Shown here: positions 4,234 through 58,745 of the stretch, piece after piece
Numbering within the stretch: position 1 is the first letter of the stretch
Layout of the letters: each line of letters begins with the position of its first letter
Assembly (NCBI GenBank): GCA_035478795.1
Contig: DATIJJ010000014.1
Span: 13,930-77,929, forward strand
Length of the DNA stretch: 64,000 bases
Direction of reading: 5' to 3'
DNA from: Gammaproteobacteria bacterium
GTDB taxonomy: Bacteria > Pseudomonadota > Gammaproteobacteria > DSM-16500
Notes under the pieces: model-generated
Told to the model about the DNA's origin: nothing
The model's input: the letters and a program-made list of their open reading frames with translations, nothing else
The model's database searches: none
Translations under genes and position numbers: made by a program

Positions 4234-4818
4234 TTAATTCGTAATTAATTTTTCTTTCAATAAATCAGATTTTAATTGATTGTATAAAGCTGAAAATGTT
4301 TTGCTGAATATAAACGATGGATATTTAATTTTTTCCAAATCAGCAATTGTCAGATTAAATGGGATATATGATTGTTTCGACTGAAGACGCTGAAAGATTG
4401 GGCATATTGCATCAGCTGCTTTTGCAATCTTTGCTTCGATGCTTTTTTTATCTTCAAATTCATACCATAGATCGTGCAGTTGCTGAGCCAGCTCAGGGTT
4501 GACCTCCATCAACTTTTTAAGTGCATCAACTTCAATTTTTTCTTTATTTTTTCTTGCTTCTATGTCAAATACACTGACATCACCAGCATAAATTTCAACA
4601 ATATCATGTATCATCGTAAGTTTAATTGTTTTCAATTCATCAATTTCTTCAAATTCATCTTTTAGTCTGTCCATAAGTGTCATGACTATCATGCTTGCTG
4701 ACCATGAGTGCTCTGCTGTACTCTCTTTTCTATTTGGCTCAGTAACATTATTTCTTAAAACAAGCTTGAGCTTGTTAAGTTCTAAAATAAACCGGTACAC
4801 ATGACTGATATCTTCCAT
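4234..4818 (-). CDS. HD-domain phosphohydrolase (YfbR-like 5'-nucleotidase family)
   Basis: 194-aa ORF with AEHSWS...IHDIVEIYAGDV (H..HD..D metal ligands). Confidence 0.7.
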   Translation of the reverse strand: MEDISHVYRFILELNKLKLVLRNNVTEPNRKESTAEHSWSASMIVMTLMDRLKDEFEEIDELKTIKLTMIHDIVEIYAGDVSVFDIEARKNKEKIEVDALKKLMEVNPELAQQLHDLWYEFEDKKSIEAKIAKAADAICPIFQRLQSKQSYIPFNLTIADLEKIKYPSFIFSKTFSALYNQLKSDLLKEKLITN

Positions 4819-4836
4819 ATTATTGCCTCATTATGA

Positions 4837-6171
4837 TTAAAGTTGATCACCGCTCTGATCCGAATGGTTTATAAAATTAGCAGCCCATTTACCTGTATAG
4901 GCAGCGCCATCAGTATAGGGAAATCCCATATAGTCTCCCGAAAGCACGATTGGTGAATGAGAAGACAGCGTTTCTTTATATTTCTTTATGCAGCTACTTT
5001 TACCAATAAAAGATACCGGTTCTGCTTCAGGCCAACGAATACAATGATAAAATCGAATAAAATTGGAAATTCCCGGAAAATATTTTTCAAGCTCCGGAAT
5101 GATTTCTTTTAAAATTGCATCATCTGATTGACCTAATAATCTTTTCGCATGCTTGTCTTCAAGCATTACATCAATCAACTCCCCTTCTCTTGCACTGTTT
5201 CTATTTTTATTGGATTCAATGCCAATAGCTGAAATACATTGTCTCTCCAGTCTCGGAATTAAAAATCCATATACATTTCGCAACTCATTGGGTAATTTCC
5301 AATCTTTATGTGTTGCAATGCCAATATTGATTGTTGAACTGTATTGTGTATTTAATAACATATTCTCAATTTCATTTGGAGAAGAATAAAGCTGTCTACT
5401 CACAGTAGAAGGAGTTGCCAGAACCACTTTATTTGCATGAAATTTATTATCACCAGATATAATGGTAACTGTGCCATTAGATTCCATAATCAGGGATTCA
5501 ACAGGAGTATTAAGTTTGATATTTAATGTAGAAGCTATTTTTTCTGGCAACGTTCCCATGCCATTTTTAAAACAAATCAGATTCCCCTTGCGAAGCGCAA
5601 AATTAAGCAGCATGAGTCCTTGTATTTTAGATGTTTCATCAGGTGTCTGGTAATAAAATCCTTGTAATTGCGGTTCTATCATATATTCAAGAATTGTTTT
5701 TCCAAATTCTCTCGAGATGAAATCAGAACAATTTTCATCATCAAACTCAACCCATTCAGAATAATCACTTAATGAAAGAGGAAGAATCCTGTTTTTCCAT
5801 TTTTGCAGATTTTTCAAAAATAAAAATGCTTCTTTCACGCCAAGATAACCGCTTAAAATAGGAGATAAAATATGATTTACAGAAATTTTACGTATTTTAT
5901 TTTTACGAACAATACCTGTCCATGAGCTCGCATCAAGCAGATCATCCTGAAGCCCTGATTCATTAATTAATGGCATGAGTGTTGAATAATATCTCGATAA
6001 AAATTGCGCGCCTCTATCAATCATAAATCCGTCAATTTTATCTGTGCTCATTCTTCCGCCGACTCTATCGGCAGCTTCATATACGGTAACGTTATACCCA
6101 TATTTTTTTAAATAATAAGCCGCTGTTAATCCTGCAATGCCTGCGCCAATAACAGCAATATTTTTATTCAT
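4837..6171 (-). CDS. FAD-dependent oxidoreductase (amine oxidase / protoporphyrinogen oxidase-like)
   Basis: N-terminal dinucleotide fold IAVIGAGIAGLTAAYYL.....V.VYEA.DRVGGR; 444 aa. Confidence 0.75.
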   Translation of the reverse strand: MNKNIAVIGAGIAGLTAAYYLKKYGYNVTVYEAADRVGGRMSTDKIDGFMIDRGAQFLSRYYSTLMPLINESGLQDDLLDASSWTGIVRKNKIRKISVNHILSPILSGYLGVKEAFLFLKNLQKWKNRILPLSLSDYSEWVEFDDENCSDFISREFGKTILEYMIEPQLQGFYYQTPDETSKIQGLMLLNFALRKGNLICFKNGMGTLPEKIASTLNIKLNTPVESLIMESNGTVTIISGDNKFHANKVVLATPSTVSRQLYSSPNEIENMLLNTQYSSTINIGIATHKDWKLPNELRNVYGFLIPRLERQCISAIGIESNKNRNSAREGELIDVMLEDKHAKRLLGQSDDAILKEIIPELEKYFPGISNFIRFYHCIRWPEAEPVSFIGKSSCIKKYKETLSSHSPIVLSGDYMGFPYTDGAAYTGKWAANFINHSDQSGDQL

Positions 6172-6204
6172 ATTTTAAAACGCCTTTATGCAATTCATCC
6201 TCTA

Positions 6205-7065
6205 TTATTTTCCTATGCAAATCTGATGCATAGAAGATAAAGTAACAAAATAACTTGTATCTTTCTGAATTTTTTCTAAATCACGCATAAATAATTCCCA
6301 TTCAGATGCTGTTAAAATATTTAACGCAATTAATTTATCCTTTATTTCATAAAAAATCAAAGTTAATAATTTTCTATTAACGGGCGTTGTTAATAATGGT
6401 TGAAAAACAGATTCATTTAAAATTTTTAATTTAATTTTTCTCAGGATTTCTGGTAGCGTTAAGGAAAAATTAGGATTAAGGCCATTTTTTATAGAAAATT
6501 GTTCCAATATTTTTCGTCTTTGATCAAAGACAGGGGAGCCAGGGTAACAAAAACTGCATGAGTTGAGCATGTCATTAATGACTAAACGGCCGCCTGTTTT
6601 CAACCGATCTTTAATCTTAATTAATGCATTTAATGGATCATCCAGATGAATTAAAACAAAACGCGAATATACAAGATCAAATTTTTCTTTGAGCTGATCA
6701 AGATCAAATACGGATAATTCATGGCATTCTACTTGTTTTAACCCATTTTTTTTAACAACCTGTTTTGTCGCGCGTATTTGTGCAGAACTATTATCAATGC
6801 AAACAACTCTTCCACGTTTACCAACCTGTTCTGCTAACCATGATGTCATGGTTCCGGAGCCGCAGCCAACTTCTAAAACTGACCAGCCTTTTTTAAGGCC
6901 TTGATCCAGTAAAAATTGTTGTGAGCCTGGATTATACACTTTACCTTGCAAATTTAAACGTTTTCTGCCAACCGAATCTGTTTTTAAATGATATTGACTC
7001 ATTAAATAATCCTCGAAATTAATATTTTCTGACCGTTTTACTTCGTAGCTTATGGATAAAATCAA
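6205..7065 (-). CDS. Class I SAM-dependent methyltransferase
   Basis: Motif I VLEVGCGSGTMT and post-I VVCIDNS; 286 aa. Confidence 0.75.
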   Translation of the reverse strand: MILSISYEVKRSENINFEDYLMSQYHLKTDSVGRKRLNLQGKVYNPGSQQFLLDQGLKKGWSVLEVGCGSGTMTSWLAEQVGKRGRVVCIDNSSAQIRATKQVVKKNGLKQVECHELSVFDLDQLKEKFDLVYSRFVLIHLDDPLNALIKIKDRLKTGGRLVINDMLNSCSFCYPGSPVFDQRRKILEQFSIKNGLNPNFSLTLPEILRKIKLKILNESVFQPLLTTPVNRKLLTLIFYEIKDKLIALNILTASEWELFMRDLEKIQKDTSYFVTLSSMHQICIGK

Positions 7066-12981: not shown

Positions 12982-13019
12982 AAAAAATAAAAAAAGCCTC
13001 CTGCCAAATGACAGGAGGC
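12982..13019 (-). terminator. Rho-independent terminator of the 85-aa ORF
   Basis: On the minus strand: GCCTCCTG-tcatttgg-CAGGAGGC followed by TTTTTTTATTTTTT. Confidence 0.7.
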
Positions 13020-13026
13020 ACAACCA

Positions 13027-13284
13027 TTATGGTCTACGCGATGGTTGAGCAGGCTCCTTTTGCCCCGCCTCCCGTTTTGGTCTCAAGGACAGCTTATTGT
13101 AACCGCAAACTCCGCCAAAAGACTTCCACTCGCTCACGATATCGCAATCAGGATTAGCCTCTTGTAACGCATTCCACCTCTTCGTTTCAAGAAACACACT
13201 GGCGCCAGTGGCTGCAGACAGTCCCACGAAATAACCAGTACCTCGCAACGCTCTTCCTACCTTTTGCTCAAAAAATTTAAACAT
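13027..13284 (-). CDS. Hypothetical 85-aa protein (paralog of 27202-27459), one predicted TM segment and a basic Pro-rich tail
   Basis: Tracked ORF with a GAGAGG Shine-Dalgarno ~8 nt upstream and its own terminator. A paralog preserves the frame and length, with conserved MFKFFEQ, ANPDCD(I/V)VSEW and AGQKEP. Confidence 0.6.
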   Translation of the reverse strand: MFKFFEQKVGRALRGTGYFVGLSAATGASVFLETKRWNALQEANPDCDIVSEWKSFGGVCGYNKLSLRPKREAGQKEPAQPSRRP

Positions 13285-13372
13285 AAAAGATTCCTCTCAA
13301 ATCAAAAGATTAAATAATAGTAAGTAGTTTATTATCTGCCGGATGTATCACCCTGAGACGGGCAGATAACGG

Positions 13373-13516
13373 TTACCGGCTCAGAGCTTGAGAGAGGGTG
13401 ATAATGAGCACCACAATTGAAGAGGTCAAAAGGATAAGGACGAGAGAAAACCCAACGGACGATTCGCTGTGTGTTTCAAAATAGCTATTTTGAGGAATAC
13501 TTCGTCTCGGGTTCAT
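13373..13516 (-). CDS. Candidate 47-aa small membrane peptide (not in ORF track)
   Basis: My translation is MNPRRSIPQNSYFETHSESSVGFSLVLILLTSSIVVLIITLSQALSR*. The second copy at 27538-27681 differs at 4 nt: 2 synonymous changes and 2 replacements in the polar N-tail. No obvious Shine-Dalgarno sequence. Confidence 0.4.
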   Translation of the reverse strand: MNPRRSIPQNSYFETHSESSVGFSLVLILLTSSIVVLIITLSQALSR

Positions 13517-13554
13517 TTTTTTAAAATCATCATTAAATTGACGTATAACGATAG

Positions 13555-13583
13555 ACCATAGCCATTCAATAAAGAAAAGTCAA
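13555..13583 (-). promoter_or_regulatory. Sigma70-like promoter for the leader / 47-aa / 85-aa transcript
   Basis: Minus strand reads TTGACT-17 nt-TATGGT. The sequence is identical in the second copy (27720-27748). The -35 element overlaps the stop codon of the AlaX-like reading frame. Confidence 0.4.
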
Positions 13584-14150: not shown

Positions 14151-14693
14151 TTAGTCATTCGATTTTTTAGCTACTCTTAATACTTTTTTAATAAATTCAC
14201 TTTTTTCATTCGTATATTTTTCTCGGTCATATATATATTGTTCCGCCAACATTATTTTTAATTTTTGATATTCATATGCCACTTCAGGATGTTGAATCAG
14301 ATAATCTCTGAAAACGATTTTATCAATCCAATGCCTTGATGTCTGCTCAACAATATGGACATGATGAGTACGTTTTTCACCAAAAGGTGGCATGCCTTTT
14401 ACAAAAAACATTCTTTCAGAATCCGGGTTTTCATACCAGTATTCGTAATCCAGTTTTTTCAATTCAAGGATAGCAATTTTTTTTATTTCTTCCAATGACA
14501 AAACTGCAATCTGAATATCAATAATTGGCTTTGCTGCCATCCCGGGAATCGCTGTGCTTCCCACATGCTGAATATCAATAATCATGGATGATGGCAATAC
14601 AGATATCAGCTTTTGAATTTCAGCATCAGCCCTGACTAACCACTCCGGATCAAATGCTACAATCTCAACAAAGTCCTCTTTATGCGTTTTCAT
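14151..14693 (-). CDS. GrpB family protein
   Basis: I..HVGSTAIPGMAAKPIIDI...V.........L...GY and HHVH are typical GrpB/UPF0157 motifs. Confidence 0.8.
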   Translation of the reverse strand: MKTHKEDFVEIVAFDPEWLVRADAEIQKLISVLPSSMIIDIQHVGSTAIPGMAAKPIIDIQIAVLSLEEIKKIAILELKKLDYEYWYENPDSERMFFVKGMPPFGEKRTHHVHIVEQTSRHWIDKIVFRDYLIQHPEVAYEYQKLKIMLAEQYIYDREKYTNEKSEFIKKVLRVAKKSND

Positions 14694-26524: not shown

Positions 26525-27055
26525 TTACATCTTGATAAACTTTATAACCTTATCGACATCCTGCTCAACCGTTTTACTGATTTCTGAAAGTTCATCTGAA
26601 CAATCAACCGATTCAACAATCAACGTAGAAACTTCTTCATAAAATGCATCGCGTTCCTGATGTTGCTTTTCAAGAAACGCTTTCATATCATCCACGGGAA
26701 GCGCTGGAACTCGCCCATTTTTCATGCGAGCCAGTTGAGTTGGAATAGATACTTTCAGATAGACAACAAATTCGGAAGATAACAATTTTCGGCATTGTTC
26801 ACTTGATACAACACATTCTTCCAATAAAACAACAATATTTTCTTTTCCGAGGCAATGCGTCATGATATCAAGCTGACATTGATTAAATGCTGCTTCACCT
26901 TGTTCGCCAAGAATATCCCGTGTTTGTCTGCCAATGTAACGTTCAATACTCGGGTTTGCATCAACGATTTGCCATCCCAGTCTTTTTGCCAATGCTTCAG
27001 TAAATATAAATTTGCCTGCGCCCATATGGCCGACGATAAAGATTCGTTTTGTCAT
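26525..27055 (-). CDS. Shikimate-kinase-like P-loop protein with atypical active-site motifs
   Basis: The overall AroK-like layout is IFIVGHMGAGKF......LA..LG......(D)....I... Walker A ends in Phe instead of Ser/Thr. The DSD and GGG shikimate-site motifs are not recognisable. Confidence 0.55.
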   Translation of the reverse strand: MTKRIFIVGHMGAGKFIFTEALAKRLGWQIVDANPSIERYIGRQTRDILGEQGEAAFNQCQLDIMTHCLGKENIVVLLEECVVSSEQCRKLLSSEFVVYLKVSIPTQLARMKNGRVPALPVDDMKAFLEKQHQERDAFYEEVSTLIVESVDCSDELSEISKTVEQDVDKVIKFIKM

Positions 27056-27156: not shown

Positions 27157-27194
27157 AAAAAAATAAAAAAGCCCCCTGCCAAACGACAGGAGGC
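27157..27194 (-). terminator. Rho-independent terminator of the 85-aa paralog
   Basis: Minus strand reads GCCTCCTG-tcgtttgg-CAGGGGGC (one mismatch) followed by TTTTTTATTTTTTT. Confidence 0.6.
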
Positions 27195-27201
27195 ATAACC
27201 A

Positions 27202-27459
27202 TCATGGTCTACGCAATGTTTGAGAAGGTTCTTTTTGCCCTGCTGCCTGTTTTGGTTTCAACGACAGATGATCATAGCCGCTAGTCAGCCCGAAAGGCCT
27301 CCACTCACTCACAACATCACAATCAGGATTAGCATCTTGCAATGCTTTCCGTCTCCTTGCTTCGAGTAAAACATCGACATATACGAGCGCAGAGAGCCCT
27401 GCGAAATAACCGGCACCAGAAAGCACTCTTTTTGCATTTTGCTCAAAAAATTTAAACAT
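27202..27459 (-). CDS. Hypothetical 85-aa protein (paralog of 13027-13284)
   Basis: Same length, same N-terminal MFKFFEQ, ANPDCDVVSEW and AGQKEPSQ..RRP tail. Flanking elements are conserved. Confidence 0.6.
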   Translation of the reverse strand: MFKFFEQNAKRVLSGAGYFAGLSALVYVDVLLEARRRKALQDANPDCDVVSEWRPFGLTSGYDHLSLKPKQAAGQKEPSQTLRRP

Positions 27460-27537
27460 AAAATGATCCTCTCAAAAGATTAATAATGATAAGTTGCTAT
27501 CTGCCGGATGTATCGCCCTGAGACGGGCAGATAACGA

Positions 27538-27681
27538 TTACCGGCTCAGAGCTTGAGAGAGGGTGATAATGAGCACCACAATTGAAGAGGTCAAAAGGAT
27601 AAGAACGAGAGAAAACCCAACGGACGATTCGCTGTATGTTTCAAAATAGCTATTGTGAGGTATACTTCGTCTCGGGTTCAT
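27538..27681 (-). CDS. Candidate 47-aa small membrane peptide, copy 2
   Basis: MNPRRSIPHNSYFETYSESSVGFSLVLILLTSSIVVLIITLSQALSR*. The TM segment is identical to copy 1. Confidence 0.4.
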   Translation of the reverse strand: MNPRRSIPHNSYFETYSESSVGFSLVLILLTSSIVVLIITLSQALSR

Positions 27682-27719: not shown

Positions 27720-27748
27720 ACCATAGCCATTCAATAAAGAAAAGTCAA
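27720..27748 (-). promoter_or_regulatory. Sigma70-like promoter, copy 2
   Basis: TTGACT-17-TATGGT on the minus strand. The -35 element overlaps the AlaX-like stop codon (27745-27747). Confidence 0.4.
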
Positions 27749-35331: not shown

Positions 35332-38300
35332 ATGCAGAAGACCGGAAGGTTTCTTTTGGGTGTGCGTAGGAGCGTGACTCATTTCGCTCTGTCTTTTCTG
35401 TTGAGTTTGTTTTTATTTTTGGATGCCGCAGCCAATCCGGCAGGCGGTGTGGTCGCAGCCGGTGATGCGACGATTTACCATGGGCTTACTACGACCGTCA
35501 TTCATCAAACTACAAACAAGGCGATTATCAATTGGCAAAGTTTTAATATTGCCGCTCACGAAACAACGAATTTCAGACAGCCCTCATCCAGCGCTGTGAT
35601 GTTAAATCGCATTAATCCGGCGCAAGGCGTTTCGCAAATTTATGGGCATCTGAATGCAAATGGGAGAATCATCCTGGTCAATCAGGCTGGAATCTATTTT
35701 GGCCCGGGGTCCTTTGTGAATGTCGGTGGAATTATTGCATCGACTTCCAATATTTCAAATGAAAATTTTCTTGCCGGAAAATATATTTTTGATGAAGCCT
35801 CGCCTTATGCCGGCTCAATCATTAATGAAGGATCCATTATTGCAAAAGATAATGGTCTTGTTGCATTAATTGGAACGGGCGTCAGTAATAGTGGCTTGAT
35901 TCAGGCAAAACTGGGAAATGTTGTGCTTGCATCAGGAAATAAATTTACGATGGATTTTAATGGCGATCAACTGATTAATTTCACTGTTGATGAGGCGACA
36001 GGTGTTGCAGGTAAGGATAGAAATGGCAATCTTTTAAAAAATGGCATCAAAAATACAGGAAAAATTATTGCGAATGGCGGCACTATTCTTGTAACAGCAC
36101 GCGTCGCAAAAAATGTATTGGATAATGTCATCAACATGAAAGGTATTGCCATGGCCCGCTCGGTTGGAAAACATAATGGCGTTATTATTTTATCGGCGGG
36201 TGATGGAACGCTGAAAGTGTCGGGTCGTTTAGACGTTTCTTCGCGTAAAGATCAGGGCGGCACGATTAAAGTGTTGGGCGATCGCGTTCAAATTGAATCA
36301 CACGCCGTATTAAATGCCAGCGGTAAAACAGGTGGCGGTGAAATTTTAATCGGCGGTAATGCACACGGTGCAGGGCCAGAACAGAATGCGAGTTACACTT
36401 ATATTGGTCCAAACGTTACTATTTTTGCCGATGCGCTTGATAAGGGGAATGGTGGGAAAGTCGTCGTCTGGTCTGATCAGGGAACCGGATTTTATGGAAC
36501 TATTTTTGCTCGCGGCGGCGCTTCAGGCGGCAATGGCGGTTTTGTTGAAACGTCAGGCAAAGCGTATCTGGATGCCATGGGTATGGTTGACGCCAGTGCA
36601 AAGGCAGGGTTGCCCGGACAATGGCTGTTGGATCCGTTTAATGTCACCATCACAACGACCACAACAAATGGTGCATTTGACTCAGGTAATCCCAACACCT
36701 ACACACCCACCGCGAATAATGGCACTGCAAACGCAGCGACAATTAATGCCTCATTAAACGGTGGAACCAGTGTCACCATTACAACAGGATCAACAGGTGC
36801 CCAGGCAGGCAATATCACAGTCAGTTCTGCCATTCTGAAAAATGCGGGCCTAACCACACCAACGCTGACATTAAATGCAGCAGGAACCATTACGATTAAT
36901 AACACCCTTTCCGCAACCAGCGGCGGTCTCAATGTGACATTAACAGGCGATGCATTAACCCTGAACTCAGCCGTCACAACCAATGGCGGAAACTTTTTAA
37001 GTACCACACAAAATGCAACGACGCTCGCGAGTGCCATTTCGACGGGAGCCGGAACCGTTAGTATTAATGTCAATCAGGATGGTTTAGGCGCAAATGCATT
37101 TGCAATGAACGCAGGCAGTTCTATTACCACAACCAATGCAAGTGCCTCTGCTGTCTCAATTGCTGTGAATACAGCATCAGGCGGCACGGGCACGGCAGCT
37201 TTACGAAGCATTACAACAGGGAGTGGCGGGACAATTTCTGTTTCAACCAATTCAGCAAATGGTAATGACATTACAATGCCTGCAGGCCTGTTGGATGTCG
37301 GTACTGGAACTGTAACGCTATCTACATCACAACTGGCTGGACGAACAATTGGCACATCTGCTTTAAATATACAGATCAAAGCGGGAAATTTTAATGCCAC
37401 AACAGGAAATAGCGGGATCTTCGTCACCAATACAGGAACAACAGGACTCAATCTGGGAACAGTCAATTCAACAGCCGGATTAACACTGACATCCACAGGA
37501 AGCACAGGTATTACGGATAGCGGAACGCTGACCCTGCCAGGAACACTCACCGTTGCTGCGGGCGCGACGCAAGATATCACTCTGAATTCCGCTACCAATA
37601 ATTTTGGTACTGCTGCGATAACCAGTGGACGCAATGTCACGCTGGTTGATACAGATGGAATTATATTGGGCGCTTCAACTATTTCCGGCACATTGAATAT
37701 TTCAGCAGGTGGCACGGTTTCACAAAGCGCTGCATTAACGGTTTCCGGAACACCGACTTTTACCGTCACAACACCCTTATCTGATATTTTATTATCTACC
37801 CAGGCAAATGCGTTCAGCACAACACCGGTCTTTACGAATAACGGAAATATACGTGATTTGGGCTTAAGAAACACACTGGCGAGCGCTGCTGTTCCTGTGA
37901 TACCAACAGGCATGAGAAATTTAACGTTGACATTTGATAATGCAGGCATGACGCTGCCCGCCATGACGTTAACCGGTACATTAACGGCAACAGCAAATGG
38001 AGTTATCGCGCAGAGTGGTGCAGAAAACATTACAGGGGTTACGACACTTTCAGCAGGTAGTGGAAATGATATTACTTTAAATAATGCAGGCAACAACTTC
38101 AGTACAGCAACGATTACATCGGGTAATAATGTCTTGCTGCGTGATCTCAATGCATTGATATTAGGTGCATCAACGATCAGCGGTACATTAGGTGTCACGA
38201 CTAATGGTGCCATTACACAAAGTGGTGCTGGCGGATTATCTGTAACAGGTGCAACTACCCTCGATGCCGGATCAGCAAATAACATCACACTGAATACAGC

Positions 38301-41103
38301 AACCAATAATTTCAGTTCTGTCGGTATTACAAGTGGAAATAATGTGTCATTACGAGACGCCAATTCACTTGTTTTAAATACATCAACAGTCAGTGGAACG
38401 TTAGGCGTTACAACAGCAGGATTACTTTCCCAGTCAGGGGCTTTAACAGTCACAGGCGTAACTACTCTGGCAGCAGGTGCCACAAACGACATTACACTGA
38501 ATAATACCAATAATGATTTTAGTCGTGTGAATGTCACAACAGGCAATAACGTTACGTTAGTGGATACCAATGCGTTGATTCTGGGTACCTCGACTGTCTC
38601 AGGTACATACAATGTAACAGCAGGCGGCACGCTCTCTCAAAATGGTGTGTTAACCATTACGGGAACACCCACTTTCACCCTGACGACACCACTGACCGAT
38701 ATTTTATTATCAACATCGGCGAATGTATTTACGACAACGCCGGTTATTACCAATAATGGGAACGTACGCGATTTGTCACTACGCAATACAGCAGCCACTG
38801 CTGCCGTGCCAACTCTTCCATCCGGTCTTCGCAATTTGACACTGACTTTTAATAATAATGCAATGACATTGCCTGCAGTCACCCTGACAGGCGCATTTAC
38901 AGGACAGGCATTGGGGAATCTGGCCATCGGCGGCAATCTGACGACAGGTGCCAATTCAACTGTCACGGTGACAGCCGGTTCGTTTTCCGTATCAGATGGT
39001 GCAACGTTTAATACAAATAATACGAATCTTTCTGTCACCGCGACAGATCTCAATTTAAATACCACCGGTGCATTAAATGTGGGAAGTGGTACGTTAAATG
39101 TCACACAGAATACAGCCAGCGGAAGTATTGGTTTGGGAAATACCGCGGGCACGATGAGTATTAGCGGTTCAGAACTGCAACGCATGATAGCGGCTATTTT
39201 TAATCTCAATGCCCCTTCCGATGGACAAATTATTGTAGATGGCATCACGGCAGCTAACAGCGCAAACATTGCATCAATGCGTTTCTTTGGAAACAGTGGA
39301 CAAGTCAGCAGCATGATTTTCGAGAATAATCCTTCAAGCTTCAAATCACTGACTGCCAGCATCGATGATGGTATCACAATCGGTAGCGGAGCCGCTTTAA
39401 CAACGACTGCCGGGAGTATGACACTGAATGGTGATTCCGGTGGTATCGGTGGCGTAAATAATGCCGTTATTTTATTTGATAATGTCACTTCAGCAGGAAC
39501 GCTAACCTTAACTGCACCGACCAACGGTGTTATTTTAAATGCGCCTGTCACTCTGACTGCAAATGGTATAACAATCAATCCTGTCGTGAATGGGGCACAA
39601 AATCTCATCATTAACGCCGGCACAGGAACAATCAACTTTAATTCTGCAGTGGGTGCAACAACTCCCTTATCCAGCTTGAGCATCACAACAACGACAAATC
39701 CTGCGATTAATGTCAATGTTAATACGACCGGCAATATCAGCGTGATTTCCGCTGGAAATCTGACGTTAGCTGCCGGTGGCAATCTGACAAGCAGTGCAGG
39801 GAGCATTTTTCTGATGAGCGGTAGCGCTATGACACTGAATTCAACGATCACAGCCAATGCAGCAGGTGACTCGATTGTAGTGGTTGGACAAACGTTTAGA
39901 AATAACAAGGGAACCAGTGTTTTTAATCCGGGTATCGGCAATTATCTTGTCTGGTCAGGTGATCCGGCCAATGACAATCGTGGCGGTCTGACCTATAACT
40001 TTAAACAATATAACGCAACCTATGGATCAACACCGGTTGCAGGAACAGGGAATGGATTCCTCTATACAACAGCGCCTGTCATTACAGCTTCTCTGACCGG
40101 TTCGACCACAAAAGTATATGACGGTAATACGAATGCAACGCTGACAAACAGTAACTATATTTTTTCCGGCGAAATAGATGGTGATACAGTCACGCTTAAC
40201 GAACCGTTGAATGGAAATTACAGTTCACCGAATGTGGGTACAAACATTCCGGTAACCGTTTCAGGAATAACTATTCTGAGTGCAACGAATGGAAGTGCAA
40301 CCGTGTATGGCTATCAGGTTACGCCAACAGCAAGTGGAAATATCGGCATCATTACCCCGGCTATCATTCCACCGGTTCCGCCAGTTCCACCTGTGAATGA
40401 ATCGTCGATAGTCAATGCGATTACGCCATTCCAGAATGGAAATCAGCTTCAGAAAAATAACACAGAAAATACAAATATCAGTATCGTTAACAATAGCCTG
40501 ACAGGAAGTGGTATTCAAAATATCGCTATCGCAGAAAAAACATCCAGCGTTTTACAGCATGCATCTTCTGACACGCAAAGTGAATTCATGCAGTCGCTTT
40601 TTGCGGGTTATCCGAATCTCGAGGTCTCATCAAATAATAATTTAATATTGCTGCTCACCTTGTTAGTTCTGTCTTCTTTCCTGTTCACACAGACATTCAG
40701 AAAATACAGAGTTAATTTTATAAGTCATTTTCCATTAAATGAAAACATGTCAGCCATATCATTTAAGTTGCGTAGTTCGCTTGACAGTATTAATGGTTTT
40801 GCCGGATTACTGTATTTCAATGAAGCAGGAACATTCTCTCAAAAACAAATGGAATTTTTGAGTGATATTTTAACTGAGTCAAATATTATTTTATCCAATC
40901 TTTCAAAAATGGAATCCGGTTCAACTTCCATCGACGAGGCGTTATCCACCTTTCAATTTAATCTTCGTACATCCCTTAACAGCATCATTGGCTTTGCAAA
41001 TTTAATTGATCAGGGAACGGCTGGCGAAATATCCCCATTACAAAAAGAATTTATTCAAAATATTATTTCAGGATCCAATGAAGCATTAAAAACTGTACAA
41101 TAA
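35332..41103 (+). CDS. FHA-like two-partner-secretion exoprotein (TpsA), 1923 aa, with atypical C-terminal TM helix and two His-less HisKA-like modules
   Basis: Signal peptide (..LDAAA-NPAGG) and TPS domain (IINWQSFNI, FRQP, LNRI, GHLNANGRIILVNQAGIYFG). Then a long T/N/G/A-rich repeat region, an MBG-like segment (YDGNTNATL..), a PPVPPVPPV linker, the TM LILLLTLLVLSSFLFTQTF-RKYR, and finally SFKLRSSL..GF and QFNLRTSL..GF. Confidence 0.85.
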   Translation: MQKTGRFLLGVRRSVTHFALSFLLSLFLFLDAAANPAGGVVAAGDATIYHGLTTTVIHQTTNKAIINWQSFNIAAHETTNFRQPSSSAVMLNRINPAQGVSQIYGHLNANGRIILVNQAGIYFGPGSFVNVGGIIASTSNISNENFLAGKYIFDEASPYAGSIINEGSIIAKDNGLVALIGTGVSNSGLIQAKLGNVVLASGNKFTMDFNGDQLINFTVDEATGVAGKDRNGNLLKNGIKNTGKIIANGGTILVTARVAKNVLDNVINMKGIAMARSVGKHNGVIILSAGDGTLKVSGRLDVSSRKDQGGTIKVLGDRVQIESHAVLNASGKTGGGEILIGGNAHGAGPEQNASYTYIGPNVTIFADALDKGNGGKVVVWSDQGTGFYGTIFARGGASGGNGGFVETSGKAYLDAMGMVDASAKAGLPGQWLLDPFNVTITTTTTNGAFDSGNPNTYTPTANNGTANAATINASLNGGTSVTITTGSTGAQAGNITVSSAILKNAGLTTPTLTLNAAGTITINNTLSATSGGLNVTLTGDALTLNSAVTTNGGNFLSTTQNATTLASAISTGAGTVSINVNQDGLGANAFAMNAGSSITTTNASASAVSIAVNTASGGTGTAALRSITTGSGGTISVSTNSANGNDITMPAGLLDVGTGTVTLSTSQLAGRTIGTSALNIQIKAGNFNATTGNSGIFVTNTGTTGLNLGTVNSTAGLTLTSTGSTGITDSGTLTLPGTLTVAAGATQDITLNSATNNFGTAAITSGRNVTLVDTDGIILGASTISGTLNISAGGTVSQSAALTVSGTPTFTVTTPLSDILLSTQANAFSTTPVFTNNGNIRDLGLRNTLASAAVPVIPTGMRNLTLTFDNAGMTLPAMTLTGTLTATANGVIAQSGAENITGVTTLSAGSGNDITLNNAGNNFSTATITSGNNVLLRDLNALILGASTISGTLGVTTNGAITQSGAGGLSVTGATTLDAGSANNITLNTATNNFSSVGITSGNNVSLRDANSLVLNTSTVSGTLGVTTAGLLSQSGALTVTGVTTLAAGATNDITLNNTNNDFSRVNVTTGNNVTLVDTNALILGTSTVSGTYNVTAGGTLSQNGVLTITGTPTFTLTTPLTDILLSTSANVFTTTPVITNNGNVRDLSLRNTAATAAVPTLPSGLRNLTLTFNNNAMTLPAVTLTGAFTGQALGNLAIGGNLTTGANSTVTVTAGSFSVSDGATFNTNNTNLSVTATDLNLNTTGALNVGSGTLNVTQNTASGSIGLGNTAGTMSISGSELQRMIAAIFNLNAPSDGQIIVDGITAANSANIASMRFFGNSGQVSSMIFENNPSSFKSLTASIDDGITIGSGAALTTTAGSMTLNGDSGGIGGVNNAVILFDNVTSAGTLTLTAPTNGVILNAPVTLTANGITINPVVNGAQNLIINAGTGTINFNSAVGATTPLSSLSITTTTNPAINVNVNTTGNISVISAGNLTLAAGGNLTSSAGSIFLMSGSAMTLNSTITANAAGDSIVVVGQTFRNNKGTSVFNPGIGNYLVWSGDPANDNRGGLTYNFKQYNATYGSTPVAGTGNGFLYTTAPVITASLTGSTTKVYDGNTNATLTNSNYIFSGEIDGDTVTLNEPLNGNYSSPNVGTNIPVTVSGITILSATNGSATVYGYQVTPTASGNIGIITPAIIPPVPPVPPVNESSIVNAITPFQNGNQLQKNNTENTNISIVNNSLTGSGIQNIAIAEKTSSVLQHASSDTQSEFMQSLFAGYPNLEVSSNNNLILLLTLLVLSSFLFTQTFRKYRVNFISHFPLNENMSAISFKLRSSLDSINGFAGLLYFNEAGTFSQKQMEFLSDILTESNIILSNLSKMESGSTSIDEALSTFQFNLRTSLNSIIGFANLIDQGTAGEISPLQKEFIQNIISGSNEALKTVQ
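37549..38892 (+). repeat. Nested intragenic repeats inside the TpsA gene
   Basis: A ~143-aa segment (37549-37977, TVAAGATQDITLNS...PAMTLTG) recurs at 38464-38892 (TLAAGATNDITLNN...PAVTLTG). About 58-aa units (..AG..NDITLN.A.NNFS...ITSGNNV.LRD.N.L.LG.STISGTLGVTT.G...QSG) lie in between. Confidence 0.8.
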
Positions 41104-42082: not shown

Positions 42083-42104
42083 AACGACATAAACAGAGGG
42101 CAGG

Positions 42105-42240
42105 AATGATCGAAGAGCCTGATATGCCAGGTGGACGTCCAGGTGACGCTTCAGGCTTCCTGATCCAGTCAGGCTTGCACACCACGTCTACCGCCGACTT
42201 CCTGAAGTTAAAACGTTGGGCTTCGATTTATTTCCTGCCC
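42105..42240. other. GC-rich, multi-helix structured intergenic element of unknown nature
   Basis: Nested complementary pairs are GGGCAGGAA/TTCCTGCCC, ATCGAAG/CTTCGAT, GGTGGACGT/ACGTCTACC, CTTCAGG/CCTGAAG and CCTGA/TCAGG. AT-rich DNA flanks the element. Confidence 0.4.
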
Positions 42241-42357
42241 ATCTTCATTATAATAAAAGTCTGACCCTTTACAAATAAAAAACAAAAAAAATAGTCGTTG
42301 ACTTTTTGTATCACGCCGAAAATGATTACCCGTTAAATAAAATCAAAGGAGTTGAAA

Positions 42358-55111: not shown

Positions 55112-55244
55112 GCAGACACTCCTTGTAAGTTGACGGTATTCAAACCCCGGCCAGTATAAATGAAATTATTATGTCGCGAAAGGTGACAGGCCGTTCATTA
55201 TTACCTAGAATGCAGGGCCAAACAGTGAGTTGATTAAAAAAAGT

Positions 55245-58200
55245 ATGATCACGTTACGCAATGTGACCCTCAATCGGGGCACCACGGTTTTATTAAAAAA
55301 TGTCAACTGGACGATTTATCCCGGGCAACGTATTGGTTTGATCGGTGCGAATGGCTCCGGAAAATCCAGTTTGTTTGCCCTGTTATTGAATAATCTGCAT
55401 GCTGATCAGGGCGATGTCGATATTTCCTGTCAACGGGTACTGGCACATGTTGCGCAGGAAACGCCGGCGTATGCAAGATCGGCGCTTGATTTTGTGCTGG
55501 ATGGTGATCGGATTCTCCGTCATCTGGAAGCAGAATTGCTGAAAGCGGAAGAGGCGAATGACGGTCATCGCATCGGTGATCTCCATGAAGAATTCGGTAA
55601 AATTGATGCATACACCGCACCTGCCCGGGCAGCGCAATTGCTTTCCGGTCTTGGCTTCACGCAGGAAGAACAACAAAAACCGGTCAGTGATTTTTCAGGC
55701 GGCTGGCGCGTTCGTTTAAATCTGGCAAAGGCACTCATGTGCCCATCCGATATTTTATTGCTGGATGAACCGACCAACCATCTGGATCTTGATGCTGTCA
55801 TCTGGCTGGAACAATGGTTGATAAAATATCCTGGTACATTGCTGCTGATTTCACACGATCGCGATTTTCTCGATCAGACAGTTGATCACATTGCCTATAT
55901 TGTCCACCAGCAGCTTGAAATTTACGCGGGTAACTATTCGACATTTGAAAAAACACGCGCCGCGCACATTCTCTTGCAACAGGCTGCCTATGAAAAACAG
56001 CAAAAACAGATTGCGCACATGCAAGGTTTTGTGAATCGTTTTCGTGCGAAAGCCAGCAAGGCGCGTCAGGCACAAAGCCGGATGAAAGCGATTGAACGCC
56101 TTGAACTCGTGAATGCCGTGCAAATCGAATCGCCTTTTCATTTTCATTTCAGGCCTCCTTTAAAATGTCCGAATCCCTTGCTGACACTCGATGAGGCGAG
56201 CATTGCCTACGGCGAAAAAAAAGTGCTGGATCATTTGAGTTTCAGCATCGGGCCGGATGACCGGATTGGCATCCTCGGGCCAAATGGTGCGGGCAAATCC
56301 AGTCTCATCAAATTACTTGCGGGCGAAATCGATCCTGCAACCGGGATACGCGAAACGAGTTCCGGTTTAAAAATCGGTTATTTTGCGCAACATCAGGTGG
56401 ATCATCTGAATTTGCAGGAAACACCGATGACGCATTTGCGTGAACTCGCACCCAATGTGCATGATCAGGAATTAAGAACATATCTTGGCACATTTGGTTT
56501 TGTCGGGACGGATGTGTTTGATCCGATTAAACAGTTTTCCGGCGGTGAAAAATCACGTCTTGCGCTGGCTCTTCTCATCTGGCAACGTCCGAATTTATTA
56601 TTGCTGGATGAACCGACCAACCACCTCGATCTTGAAATGCGAAATGCCCTGAGCATTGCCCTGCAGGAATATGAAGGTGCGATGTTACTTGTCTCGCACG
56701 ATCGATTTTTGCTGCGCGCCACAGTCGACCGGTTGGTGCTCGTGGCCAATCATCGGGTAGAACCTTTTACAGGCGATATGCCTGACTATGAAAAATGGTT
56801 GCTGGATTATCGCCGACAGACAAACAATTCTCGAAAAAAGGGATCCACTGAACCCATGACAAATTTAATTACGCTGGATAATGTTTCACTCGCTTTTGGT
56901 CTCGATGTGTTGCTCGATCGTGTCAAATTGCAAATTGAAAAAGGGGAACGCGTTTGTCTGATTGGACGCAATGGTGCCGGAAAATCATCGCTCATGAAAA
57001 TCATTGAAGGTACACAATCGCCGGATAGCGGCACCCTTTGGCGAAAACCTGCACTGCGCATGGCGCGTCTCACGCAGGAATTACCGCAAAATTTGACTGA
57101 AACCGTTTATGAATTTGTGGCGGGAGGACTGGCTGAAACCGGTGAATTACTCGCGCAGTTTAATGCACTGACTCATCGCGTTGCAGACAATTATACGGAA
57201 CAGGATTTAAAAGAACTGGAACGTTTACAACACGCCATCGATAGCAAAAATGGCTGGCATTTTGAGCAGGAAATCAAACGCATCCTGGAACGTCTGCAGT
57301 TGCCAAACGATCAACGCATGGCGGATCTTTCCGGTGGCTGGCAACGACGTGCAGCGCTCGCCAGAGCGCTTGTGACAGATCCGGAATTATTATTGCTCGA
57401 TGAGCCGACCAACCATCTGGACATTGAAGCGATTCAATGGCTGGAAGAAGATTTGTTGCGATCCGGTGTCGCATTGATTTTTATTACACATGATCGCGCC
57501 TTGTTGAAGCGTCTTGCGACCCGCATTATTGAACTGGATCGCGGGCAATTAACGTCATGGCCCGGTGATTATGAAAATTTTCTGAGGCGTAAGGAAGAAA
57601 TGCTGCATGCGGAAGAAAAACAGAATGCGGAATTTGATAAGAAACTGGCGGAGGAAGAACGCTGGATTCGTCAGGGCATCAAGGCACGTCGTACGCGTAA
57701 CGAAGGACGTGTGCGTGCATTGAAAGCGTTACGTGAAACACGGGCAAAACGTCGTGAAGTTCAGGGCAAGGCCAGTTTTGATTTGCACGCGGCTGAAAAA
57801 TCCGGACAACTGGTTGTGGAAGTAAATCACATTTCGCAAACATATCATCACAAAAAAATCATCGGGGATTTTTCACTTCGCATCATGCGGGGAGATAAAA
57901 TTGGTTTAATCGGCCCAAACGGAATTGGAAAAAGTACGCTGTTGAATATATTACTCGGCAATCTAACGCCACAACAGGGCACGGTACGCATGGGCACGCA
58001 ATTGCATATTGCTTATTTCGATCAGTTACGCAAAGCGCTCGATCCTGAAAAATCCGTCATGGAAAATGTGTCACCTGGCAGTGATACGATTGAAATTAAC
58101 GGTAAAAAACGTCACATCATCAGTTACCTCGGTGATTTTTTATTTACGCCAGCACGCGCCATGACACCGGTCAAGGCACTCTCGGGTGGTGAATGCAATC

Positions 58201-58745
58201 GTTTGCTGCTCGCGCGTCTTTTCAGTCAACCGTCCAATTTGCTGGTGCTGGATGAACCGACGAATGATCTTGACATTGAAACACTCGAATTACTGGAAGA
58301 ATTGTTAGGAGATTATCCGGGAACCTTATTGGTAGTCAGTCACGATCGGGCTTTTCTGGATAATGTGGTCACAAGTACGCTGGTTTTTGAAGGCAATGGC
58401 GTGATTCAGGATTATGTCGGTGGTTATGAGGATGGGTTAGCGCAAAAAAAATCGAACACCGACATCAAAAATACGATTGAAAAAAAACCCGCCGCTGAAA
58501 AATCAGGGCAAAAATTAAGTTATAAAGAACAAAAGGAACTGGAAGAATTACCCAAACGCATTGACACACTTGAAGCCGAACAGGCAGCCTTGCAAGCTAA
58601 AACCGCACAGCCGGATTTTTATCAACAGGATGAAGCGACCGTGTCCGAGGCCATGCAGCGCCTGAAGACGCTCGCCGAGATGCTTGAAAAGGCTTATGAG
58701 CGATGGGCGGTGCTGGATCAGAAGGCGGCGTTGCAGAAGAAATAA
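55245..58745 (+). CDS. Four-NBD ABC-F protein: in-frame fusion of a YheS-like module (lacking its C-terminal extension) and a full Uup module
   Basis: A single frame with no stop. It has four Walker A motifs (GANGSGKS, GPNGAGKS, GRNGAGKS, GPNGIGKS), four signatures and four DEPTN.LD motifs. The junction reads ...DYEKWLLDYRRQTNNSRKKGSTEP-MTNLITLDNVSL (internal ATG at 56856). Confidence 0.8.
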   Translation: MITLRNVTLNRGTTVLLKNVNWTIYPGQRIGLIGANGSGKSSLFALLLNNLHADQGDVDISCQRVLAHVAQETPAYARSALDFVLDGDRILRHLEAELLKAEEANDGHRIGDLHEEFGKIDAYTAPARAAQLLSGLGFTQEEQQKPVSDFSGGWRVRLNLAKALMCPSDILLLDEPTNHLDLDAVIWLEQWLIKYPGTLLLISHDRDFLDQTVDHIAYIVHQQLEIYAGNYSTFEKTRAAHILLQQAAYEKQQKQIAHMQGFVNRFRAKASKARQAQSRMKAIERLELVNAVQIESPFHFHFRPPLKCPNPLLTLDEASIAYGEKKVLDHLSFSIGPDDRIGILGPNGAGKSSLIKLLAGEIDPATGIRETSSGLKIGYFAQHQVDHLNLQETPMTHLRELAPNVHDQELRTYLGTFGFVGTDVFDPIKQFSGGEKSRLALALLIWQRPNLLLLDEPTNHLDLEMRNALSIALQEYEGAMLLVSHDRFLLRATVDRLVLVANHRVEPFTGDMPDYEKWLLDYRRQTNNSRKKGSTEPMTNLITLDNVSLAFGLDVLLDRVKLQIEKGERVCLIGRNGAGKSSLMKIIEGTQSPDSGTLWRKPALRMARLTQELPQNLTETVYEFVAGGLAETGELLAQFNALTHRVADNYTEQDLKELERLQHAIDSKNGWHFEQEIKRILERLQLPNDQRMADLSGGWQRRAALARALVTDPELLLLDEPTNHLDIEAIQWLEEDLLRSGVALIFITHDRALLKRLATRIIELDRGQLTSWPGDYENFLRRKEEMLHAEEKQNAEFDKKLAEEERWIRQGIKARRTRNEGRVRALKALRETRAKRREVQGKASFDLHAAEKSGQLVVEVNHISQTYHHKKIIGDFSLRIMRGDKIGLIGPNGIGKSTLLNILLGNLTPQQGTVRMGTQLHIAYFDQLRKALDPEKSVMENVSPGSDTIEINGKKRHIISYLGDFLFTPARAMTPVKALSGGECNRLLLARLFSQPSNLLVLDEPTNDLDIETLELLEELLGDYPGTLLVVSHDRAFLDNVVTSTLVFEGNGVIQDYVGGYEDGLAQKKSNTDIKNTIEKKPAAEKSGQKLSYKEQKELEELPKRIDTLEAEQAALQAKTAQPDFYQQDEATVSEAMQRLKTLAEMLEKAYERWAVLDQKAALQKK

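Follow-up and report, generated by a model that had tools for sequence, protein, structure and literature searches.

Expression of neighbouring bacterial genes can be coupled at the level of translation when the ribosome-binding site (RBS) of the downstream cistron is occluded, as in rpmI–rplT of the E. coli IF3 operon and in the MS2 coat–replicase pair. In the type V toxin–antitoxin locus ghoST, a membrane peptide toxin, GhoT, is accompanied by a small protein, GhoS, which cleaves GhoT mRNA. Translational coupling mediated by upstream open reading frames (uORFs) has been described in bacteria (PMC13285730). Here we describe a module that occurs twice in a 64,000-nucleotide stretch (the window) of contig DATIJJ010000014.1 from a gammaproteobacterium of the DSM-16500 lineage. 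Each copy, on the minus strand (A, 13583–12996; B, 27748–27171), runs from a promoter through a 47-codon small open reading frame (sORF), a structured spacer and an 85-codon gene to a terminator (Table 1). An earlier note on this DNA had reported the promoter, the sORF and the 85-aa frame in both copies, and all three are present where it placed them. The module is a real, previously undescribed small-protein operon. With moderate confidence, and from sequence comparison, we favour the reading that its two genes are translationally coupled by occlusion of the second gene's Shine–Dalgarno (SD) sequence, and that their products would act together.

As in the RBS-occlusion systems, a sequence within the upstream ORF is predicted to pair with the SD of the next cistron, and promoter and terminator are shared. 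Unlike in those systems, stop and start lie 78–88 nt apart instead of overlapping or adjoining, an almost invariant structured element of ~55 nt, possibly a pseudoknot, stands between the pairing arms, the upstream ORF has no SD, both products are orphan small proteins, and coupling is here a prediction. With SecM–secA (mechanism summarised in PMC10502375), MifM–yidC2 and VemP–secDF2, the module shares a uORF that encodes a membrane or exported peptide and overlaps, at its 3' end, an RBS-shielding structure. It departs from them in that its downstream protein is an orphan and not a translocon or insertase component (SecA, YidC, SecDF), that the transmembrane helix of its peptide is C-terminal and would be in the exit tunnel at termination, that no arrest motif can be separated from the RNA, pairing explaining the conserved residues, and that its peptide evolves like a functional protein.

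Type I loci (hok/sok, dinQ/agrB, aapA1/isoA1) likewise have a hydrophobic peptide of <60 aa (PMC8309996, PMC11264685) and a structured mRNA in which the SD is sequestered and alternative folds are metastable (PMC5066626, PMC6733600), and they too are small, stand-alone, duplicated and patchily distributed. In contrast to these loci, the module has no detectable antisense RNA gene and no toxin-family sequence match, its sequestered SD would serve a second protein gene downstream of the peptide, and the topology of the peptide is reversed, with a polar N-terminus and a C-terminal transmembrane helix. Like ghoST, it combines a small membrane peptide and a <100-aa protein in one operon, and its conserved RNA site could be a protein target; unlike in ghoST, the gene order is reversed and there is no Pfam or NCBIfam match, the two being compared by sequence only.

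The sORF is, to judge from its evolution, a real membrane-peptide gene missed by annotation and not an incidental ORF, and it is presumably translated. The frame ending at the conserved stop codon is open in every lineage with DNA at hand, the stop being displaced by one codon in one of them (contig L012). Complete sORFs have 47, 47, 48, 44 and 44 codons, and that of Logan contig L003 carries an in-frame 3-nt insertion. Under dinucleotide shuffling, an open frame would arise by chance with probabilities of 0.19, 0.076, 0.091, 0.26 and 0.29 in five lineages, which gives a joint probability of about 1e-4 if the lineages are taken as independent. Over sORF codons 2–36, the ratio of nonsynonymous to synonymous divergence (dN/dS) relative to L003 is 0.33–0.45, indicating purifying selection and not distinguishable from the 0.31–0.46 of the 85-aa coding sequence (CDS). 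Group 2 peptides are 28–45% identical to the window peptide (29–35% for the larger protein), and the N-terminus MN(P/L)(R/K)RS.P is retained despite synonymous changes (CGA/AGA, AGU/AGC, CCU/CCG). KD19 hydropathy of the C-terminal segment is 2.3–3.1 in all peptides (2.79 in copy A), compared with 0.5–1.45 for the 85-aa proteins, which have no strong hydrophobic segment.

The earlier note had doubted that the sORF is coding. The open frames, the dN/dS values and the in-frame indel contradict this doubt, and a check of the homologous sORFs for frameshifts found none. The four nucleotide differences that it had counted between the two window copies are as described, two synonymous (ATT/ATA, GTC/GTT) and two that exchange a residue (Q9H, H16Y). 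Another long open frame in the leaders proved to be a compositional artefact, the +2 frame of stop-free, NUN-rich hydrophobic codons. Fusion of the sORF with the 85-aa gene by readthrough or frameshifting was also rejected, because the stop-to-ATG distances (88, 78, 82, 84, 87 and 86 nt) keep no frame relation.

A second constraint is superimposed on the end of the sORF. The RNA core around its stop codon is kept in 9/9 leaders, with 74–76 of 76 positions identical among A, B and L003, and dS between A and L003 is 0 in codons 37–47 (0.4–0.6 in the flanks). Constraint therefore acts on the RNA or DNA sequence; by this comparison, the core is constrained as nucleic acid beyond its coding role. 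Codons ACC CUC .. GCU CUG AGC CGG are essentially fixed (probability ~2e-5 per lineage from window codon usage), and the two codons that separate the fixed blocks are free to vary (SQ, FS, YS, SF). The rare changes in the core follow base pairing, not amino-acid identity. AGC>GGC (Ser>Gly) in L011 makes an A–U pair into G–U, AGC>AGU in L008 makes C–G into U–G, and CUC>CUU in L012 is accompanied by G>A in the SD of the same leader. Near-invariance covers ~55 nt, the unpaired CCGGUAA and CCCG among them, and points to an additional sequence-specific partner, be it a protein, an RNA, a ligand or the ribosome; possibly, this partner could be the basic 85-aa product itself. Comparison with Rfam covariance models, an approach proposed in the earlier note, brought no family near the gathering threshold, and neither leader nor core matched any family even at E<=10, terminator-driven noise aside.

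The family in which this core recurs is small. A word-based search with the 85-aa protein returned only itself and one 67%-identical protein (P0002) on L003, a contig that bears the entire leader. When 1.84 billion representatives were searched exhaustively with an HMMER profile, four genuine remote homologues of 81–116 aa emerged, and a profile word search raised the total to nine proteins, six of which are 29–35% identical to the window protein. From the contigs of these homologues (NCBI GCA_014132595.1, Logan runs, and JGI and ENA metagenomes), we recovered seven further distinct modules on metagenome or metagenome-assembled-genome contigs, all of which keep the sORF end, the RNA core and the SD region. 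Upstream of every homologue stands an ORF ending in ..I(I/L)TL(F/S/Y)(S/Q/F)AL(S/G)R(K)-stop; the core sequence shared across the contigs is GCUCUGAGCCGGUAAUUGUUUUCUGCCCGYCUCAGGGC...GCAGAUAACAA, and the SD takes the form AAGAGGAUAUUAUUAUG. Universal core patterns of the module include TCTGCCCGNNTCAGGG and GGTAANNGTTNTCTGCC. The promoter is TTGACT-17-TATTGT in L003 and, read from sequence, TTGACA-17-TAACTT in L008, and a strong terminator lies directly 3' of the second gene in each module.

Flanking genes vary from locus to locus with no conserved neighbour, and the module is not beside the SKI-like gene in two JGI contigs whose SKI-like genes belong to the window's 90%-identity cluster. The module is therefore an autonomous two-gene unit, patchily distributed. 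A 34-nt core pattern has 2 exact occurrences in the window against 0 expected, and the window holds two copies only. Searches of plasmids, phages, E. coli genomes and viral contigs found no module. Scans of a genome and metagenome collection were empty as well, and are uninformative on the wider family because their patterns, drawn from the window subgroup only, predate discovery of the divergent subgroup.

RNAalifold on nine leaders (alignment A5, core to SD spanning columns 59–176) gave a consensus with a long-range helix that joins columns 61–66 (CCUCUC) to columns 169–174 (the SD), with compensatory changes at two pairs. In an explicit anti-SD:SD model (columns 59–66 with 169–176), 83% of cells are paired; the whole explicit model is 89% paired, and 41–47% once the partners are slid. 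The CCUCUC stretch is conserved in 8/8 leaders that cover it, in 7/8 no upstream sequence pairs better with the SD window than the ACCCUCU region, the partition-function probability that the SD pairs with the anti-SD is 0.65–0.90 in 6/8, and stop-to-ATG spacing is confined to 78–88 nt. The complementarity of CCUCUCUCAA at the sORF end to UUGAGAGG in the SD region, pointed out in the earlier note, is present, and its proposal of SD masking or coupling by the CCUCUC stretch draws support from the conservation, the best-partner ranking and the two compensatory pairs. Taken together, sequestration of the second gene's SD by the anti-SD appears likely, with covariation between the two arms that is suggestive, not conclusive.

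Two further helices occupy the region between these arms. S1 (GCUCUGAG:CUCAGGGY) is enclosed by the anti-SD:SD helix and paired in 100% of cells of the explicit model, and its three one-sided changes all keep pairing via G–U. S2 (UURUYUCUGCC:GGCAGAUAA) extends the 9-bp hairpin UUAUCUGCC/GGCAGAUAA that had been noticed after the peptide stop and that proves to be conserved in homologues; 86% of its cells are paired and its arms are nearly invariant. A search for covariation thus found two compensatory pairs in the anti-SD:SD helix and no double compensatory changes in S1 or S2. Both S1 and S2 span the sORF stop codon and interleave, and in these models they may either combine in an H-type pseudoknot or exclude each other as alternative conformers. 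In 7/8 leaders, a fold made to include S1 and one made to include S2 differ by 0.7–3 kcal/mol, and a small inner hairpin, GCCC/GGGY, is likewise compatible. The folding energy of the whole leader is ordinary (z = -1.4 in one window copy and -1.2 in the other). A helix AACCC..GACGA/UCGUC..GGGUU, earlier drawn around CAAAAUAGCUAUUUUG, does occur in the minimum-free-energy fold of copy A and is not conserved elsewhere; the 5' hairpin CAAAAUAGCUAUUUUG itself has one uncompensated mismatch in copy B, two in L003 and no counterpart in distant homologues. Decaying in this way without compensation, it was rejected as a structural element.

The downstream proteins are 81–92 aa long and always basic (pI 9.1–9.9), and they appear to be non-membrane. 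Pfam, NCBIfam, PADLOC and PHROGs hold no match for the 85-aa protein or for the peptide, and a PDB sequence search found no relative of the 85-aa protein. Its AlphaFold model, a long helix followed by a beta-hairpin, is poor (pLDDT 59). The 85-aa protein family is previously undescribed.

In the coupled operon that we favour, one promoter-to-terminator bicistronic unit would encode two small proteins, first a ~45-residue peptide of the tail-anchored type, basic and polar at its N-terminus and with a transmembrane helix at its C-terminus, and then a basic protein of ~85 residues. S1 and S2 would form in the segment made up of the final ~9 sORF codons and the ~45 nt that follow. Around them, ACCCUCU (sORF codons 40–42, Thr-Leu-Ser) would pair with the second gene's SD in a long-range helix, the anti-SD and SD arms being drawn together by the compact S1/S2 element. 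In free mRNA, the RBS of the second gene would be masked. Ribosomes crossing the end of the sORF would melt the mask, and the 85-aa protein would be made only from mRNAs with a translated sORF. On the folding models, masking of the downstream SD is most likely what the RNA core does.

Several observations weigh against this reading. The sORF has no SD, only an A-rich run upstream, and is missing from all gene calls. In L008 and L009, the pairing probability of SD and anti-SD is just 0.19–0.25, and a permutation test of cognate against non-cognate anti-SD/SD duplex energies was not significant (92 of 720). CCUC-containing strings complement any SD, and with ~8 distinct leaders covariation is thin, its two compensatory pairs representing possibly two evolutionary events. 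A ribosome modelled on the stop codon leaves the anti-SD behind its footprint and the predicted SD pairing unchanged; therefore, opening of the mask would be transient. Finally, the ~55 invariant nt exceed what SD masking alone needs.

Table 1. Positions of module features in the window
Feature	Position	Strand	Remarks
Copy A promoter-like site TTGACT-17-TATGGT	13555-13583	-	shared unchanged by copy B
Copy A sORF, 47 aa, ATG start	13373-13516	-	basic polar N-terminus, then C-terminal transmembrane helix
Copy A ultraconserved RNA core	13332-13408	-	last 11 sORF codons, stop and next 41 nt
Copy A anti-SD ACCCUCU	13393-13399	-	codons Thr-Leu-Ser
Copy A helix S1, 5' arm GCUCUGAG	13380-13387	-	codons Ala-Leu-Ser
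Copy A helix S1, 3' arm CUCAGGGU	13350-13357	-	
Copy A hairpin S2, 5' arm UUAUCUGCC	13361-13369	-	begins 4 nt past stop codon
Copy A hairpin S2, 3' arm GGCAGAUAA	13332-13340	-	
Copy A SD region of 85-aa gene, UUGAGAGGAA	13291-13300	-	predicted probability of pairing with anti-SD 0.70
Copy A 85-aa gene	13027-13284	-	basic protein, pI 9.8, without transmembrane segment
Copy A intrinsic terminator	12996-13019	-	equivalents downstream of every homologue
Copy B promoter-like site TTGACT-17-TATGGT	27720-27748	-	
Copy B sORF, 47 aa	27538-27681	-	Q9H and H16Y relative to copy A
Copy B ultraconserved RNA core	27497-27573	-	holds anti-SD, S1 and S2
Copy B SD GAGAGG	27468-27473	-	
Copy B 85-aa gene	27202-27459	-	62% aa identity with copy A
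Copy B intrinsic terminator	27171-27194	-	

Among the alternatives, the one that survives best, unlikely as we judge it to be, is a toxin–antitoxin-like locus. Here the peptide would be a membrane toxin and the core the recognition site of an antidote, either a type I RNA or a type V-like 85-aa protein that acts on the toxin mRNA at the core, or else the protein would be a direct antidote. At 44–48 aa and with a strong transmembrane helix, the peptide has the size and kind of type I toxins, which are <60 aa (PMC8309996, PMC11264685), and its mRNA is highly structured with a putatively masked SD, like type I toxin mRNAs (PMC6733600, PMC5066626). The module stands alone, is duplicated in one genome among unrelated flanking genes and is missing beside the SKI-like gene of close relatives; the invariant ~55 nt call for a sequence-specific partner, and the 85-aa protein is basic in all cases. 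However, groups 1 and 2 have no antisense promoter at a homologous position and no antisense terminator, the masked SD is that of the second gene and not of the putative toxin, and no toxin family (Hok/Gef, Ldr, TisB, Fst, Ibs etc.) is matched in Pfam, NCBIfam, PADLOC or PHROGs. With its polar N-terminus and C-terminal transmembrane helix, the peptide also differs from most type I toxins on record. A candidate antisense promoter, TTGAGA-18-CACAAT, is found in group 1 only, where it is the reverse complement of the anti-SD, and that of L008 is a different, weak site elsewhere; both were rejected. The type I toxin that the earlier note had offered as an option is thus left with neither a conserved antisense promoter or terminator nor a family match, although a trans-encoded sRNA antitoxin is conceivable.

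Next in order, and likewise improbable, the core could be a new ligand- or host-factor-binding RNA that controls the second gene, such as a riboswitch-like pseudoknot, an RNase site or an Hfq/sRNA dock beside the AU-rich spacer, its overlap with the sORF end being secondary. Conservation of ~55 nt, unpaired positions included, is of riboswitch grade where the proteins are ~30% identical, the S1/S2 topology fits an H-type pseudoknot, and the core stands upstream of the same gene every time. The lack of an Rfam match at E<=10 and of double compensatory changes in S1 and S2 speaks against such an RNA, as do the distance of the SD, 35–45 nt beyond the putative pseudoknot, and a downstream protein without a recognisable metabolic or transport role that would point to a ligand. 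The resemblance of the AU-rich spacer to a Fur box also failed; the best sites score 11–15 of 19, at differing positions and mostly not above shuffles.

Still less probable is a regulatory leader peptide, on which ribosomes would pause at ..TL..ALSR-stop in response to some signal, hold the core open and so set expression of the 85-aa protein. The architecture is that of SecM–secA, in which the end of a membrane or exported uORF overlaps an RBS-shielding structure (PMC10502375). C-terminal residues I38, T40, L41, A44, L45 and R47 of the peptide are invariant, as is the CGG-UAA ending though CGG makes up 12% of Arg codons, and the near-isoenergetic S1 and S2 folds are consistent with a switch. 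But the invariant residues coincide with the helix arms, the codons between the arms are free, and a Ser>Gly change is accepted as long as pairing survives; RNA constraint therefore suffices for the conserved C-terminus. A sensor uORF also needs no conserved transmembrane helix and N-terminus with the dN/dS of the main gene. With the C-terminal helix inside the exit tunnel at termination, force sensing of the MifM/SecM type would be implausible, and the anti-SD lies outside the footprint of a ribosome at the stop codon.

A long shot, which we rate lower again, is that the core is a new H-type pseudoknot RNA bound sequence-specifically by the 85-aa protein in a self-regulating toxin–antidote circuit. 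The protein would then bind or cleave its own bicistronic mRNA at the stop codon of the membrane-peptide toxin, an arrangement that known toxin–antitoxin types do not cover.

The near-identity of the two window leaders, to which the earlier note had drawn attention, is real and, as we read it, has two causes: a ~75-nt core that is nearly invariant in all homologues, and homogenisation of promoter and sORF between the paralogues. Copies A and B have the same promoter (100% identity) and closely similar 5' untranslated regions (95%), sORFs (97%) and cores around the sORF stop (97%); they then share 44% in the spacer after the core, 72% in the 85-aa CDS and 92% in the terminator. In the CDS, the nearest relation of copy A is with L003 (78% nt), ahead of copy B (72%), and in the promoter and 5' sORF A and B are 95–100% identical to each other and 69–86% to L003. 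The dS between A and B is 0.03–0.06 in the sORF and 0.71–0.76 in the adjoining CDS, a more than ten-fold discordance that is the textbook signature of a short gene-conversion tract. The simplest reading of these values is that a ~270-nt tract was converted between the paralogues, atop the universal constraint on the core. That the leaders are alike through recent duplication or gene conversion only, with ORF and helices incidental and no special function, is scarcely credible: the low dS of the sORF does show that recent exchange contributes, but core, sORF end and SD context recur in seven modules of unrelated samples with proteins ~30% identical, and the sORF is under purifying selection.

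The surroundings of the module provided further observations. In a close relative (JGI 3300020794; L014 487–1614), a GrpB gene directly neighbours the SKI-like gene; the window has the two 12 kb apart (14151–14693 and 26525–27055), and both module copies are within or at the edges of the DNA between them. This separation suggests an insertion or rearrangement that brought the modules. In L003, five tandem-like direct repeats of the GTGAC(N3-4)TACAGGA type (640–775) precede the module promoter by ~70–200 nt and resemble iterons or an operator array. In L008, a Logan contig of 54.6 kb, a defence-system-like pair of an AAA_21 ATPase and RloB (4531–6279) lies 1.2 kb downstream of the module. Two contigs carry errors of annotation or assembly. 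The 116-aa gene call of P0004 (L011 119–469) begins inside the conserved RNA core; translation almost certainly starts instead at the ATG at 206, behind the conserved SD, which gives 87 aa. ENA contig k119_221869 (L010) opens at 1–27 with GGGCTCGGAGATGTGTATAAGAGACAG. This is a Nextera/Tn5 mosaic-end adapter that persists in the assembly and falsely lengthens the sORF open frame there.

Elsewhere in the window, the sole Rfam match is 6S/SsrS RNA (42086–42256, minus strand; RF00013, 56.3 bits, above the gathering score). A 1171-codon ORF (55230–58745, plus strand) is matched twice by ABC-F profiles of the Uup/EttA type, at residues 6–537 and 545–1164, and represents either a pair of ABC-F genes joined in a single reading frame or a genuine tandem fusion. 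A 1923-aa protein (35332–41103, plus strand) with a two-partner-secretion (TPS) domain, DUF5649 repeats and a YDG domain resembles a two-partner-secretion exoprotein.

The analysis brings to light a gene that is invisible to annotation, in a module whose proteins are orphans, 9 among 5.8 billion. One stretch of its sequence is under constraint at the codon level and at the RNA level alike, which makes it a clean test case of dual constraint. Near-identity of paralogous leaders mixes gene conversion with true constraint, and only cross-species comparison parts the two. The module also offers a natural system in which to study the joint effect of SD masking, the context of the stop codon and a possible pseudoknot on the expression of two small proteins. 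Should the peptide turn out to be toxic or to have a regulatory role, a new architecture would join the repertoire of small membrane proteins and toxin–antitoxin systems.

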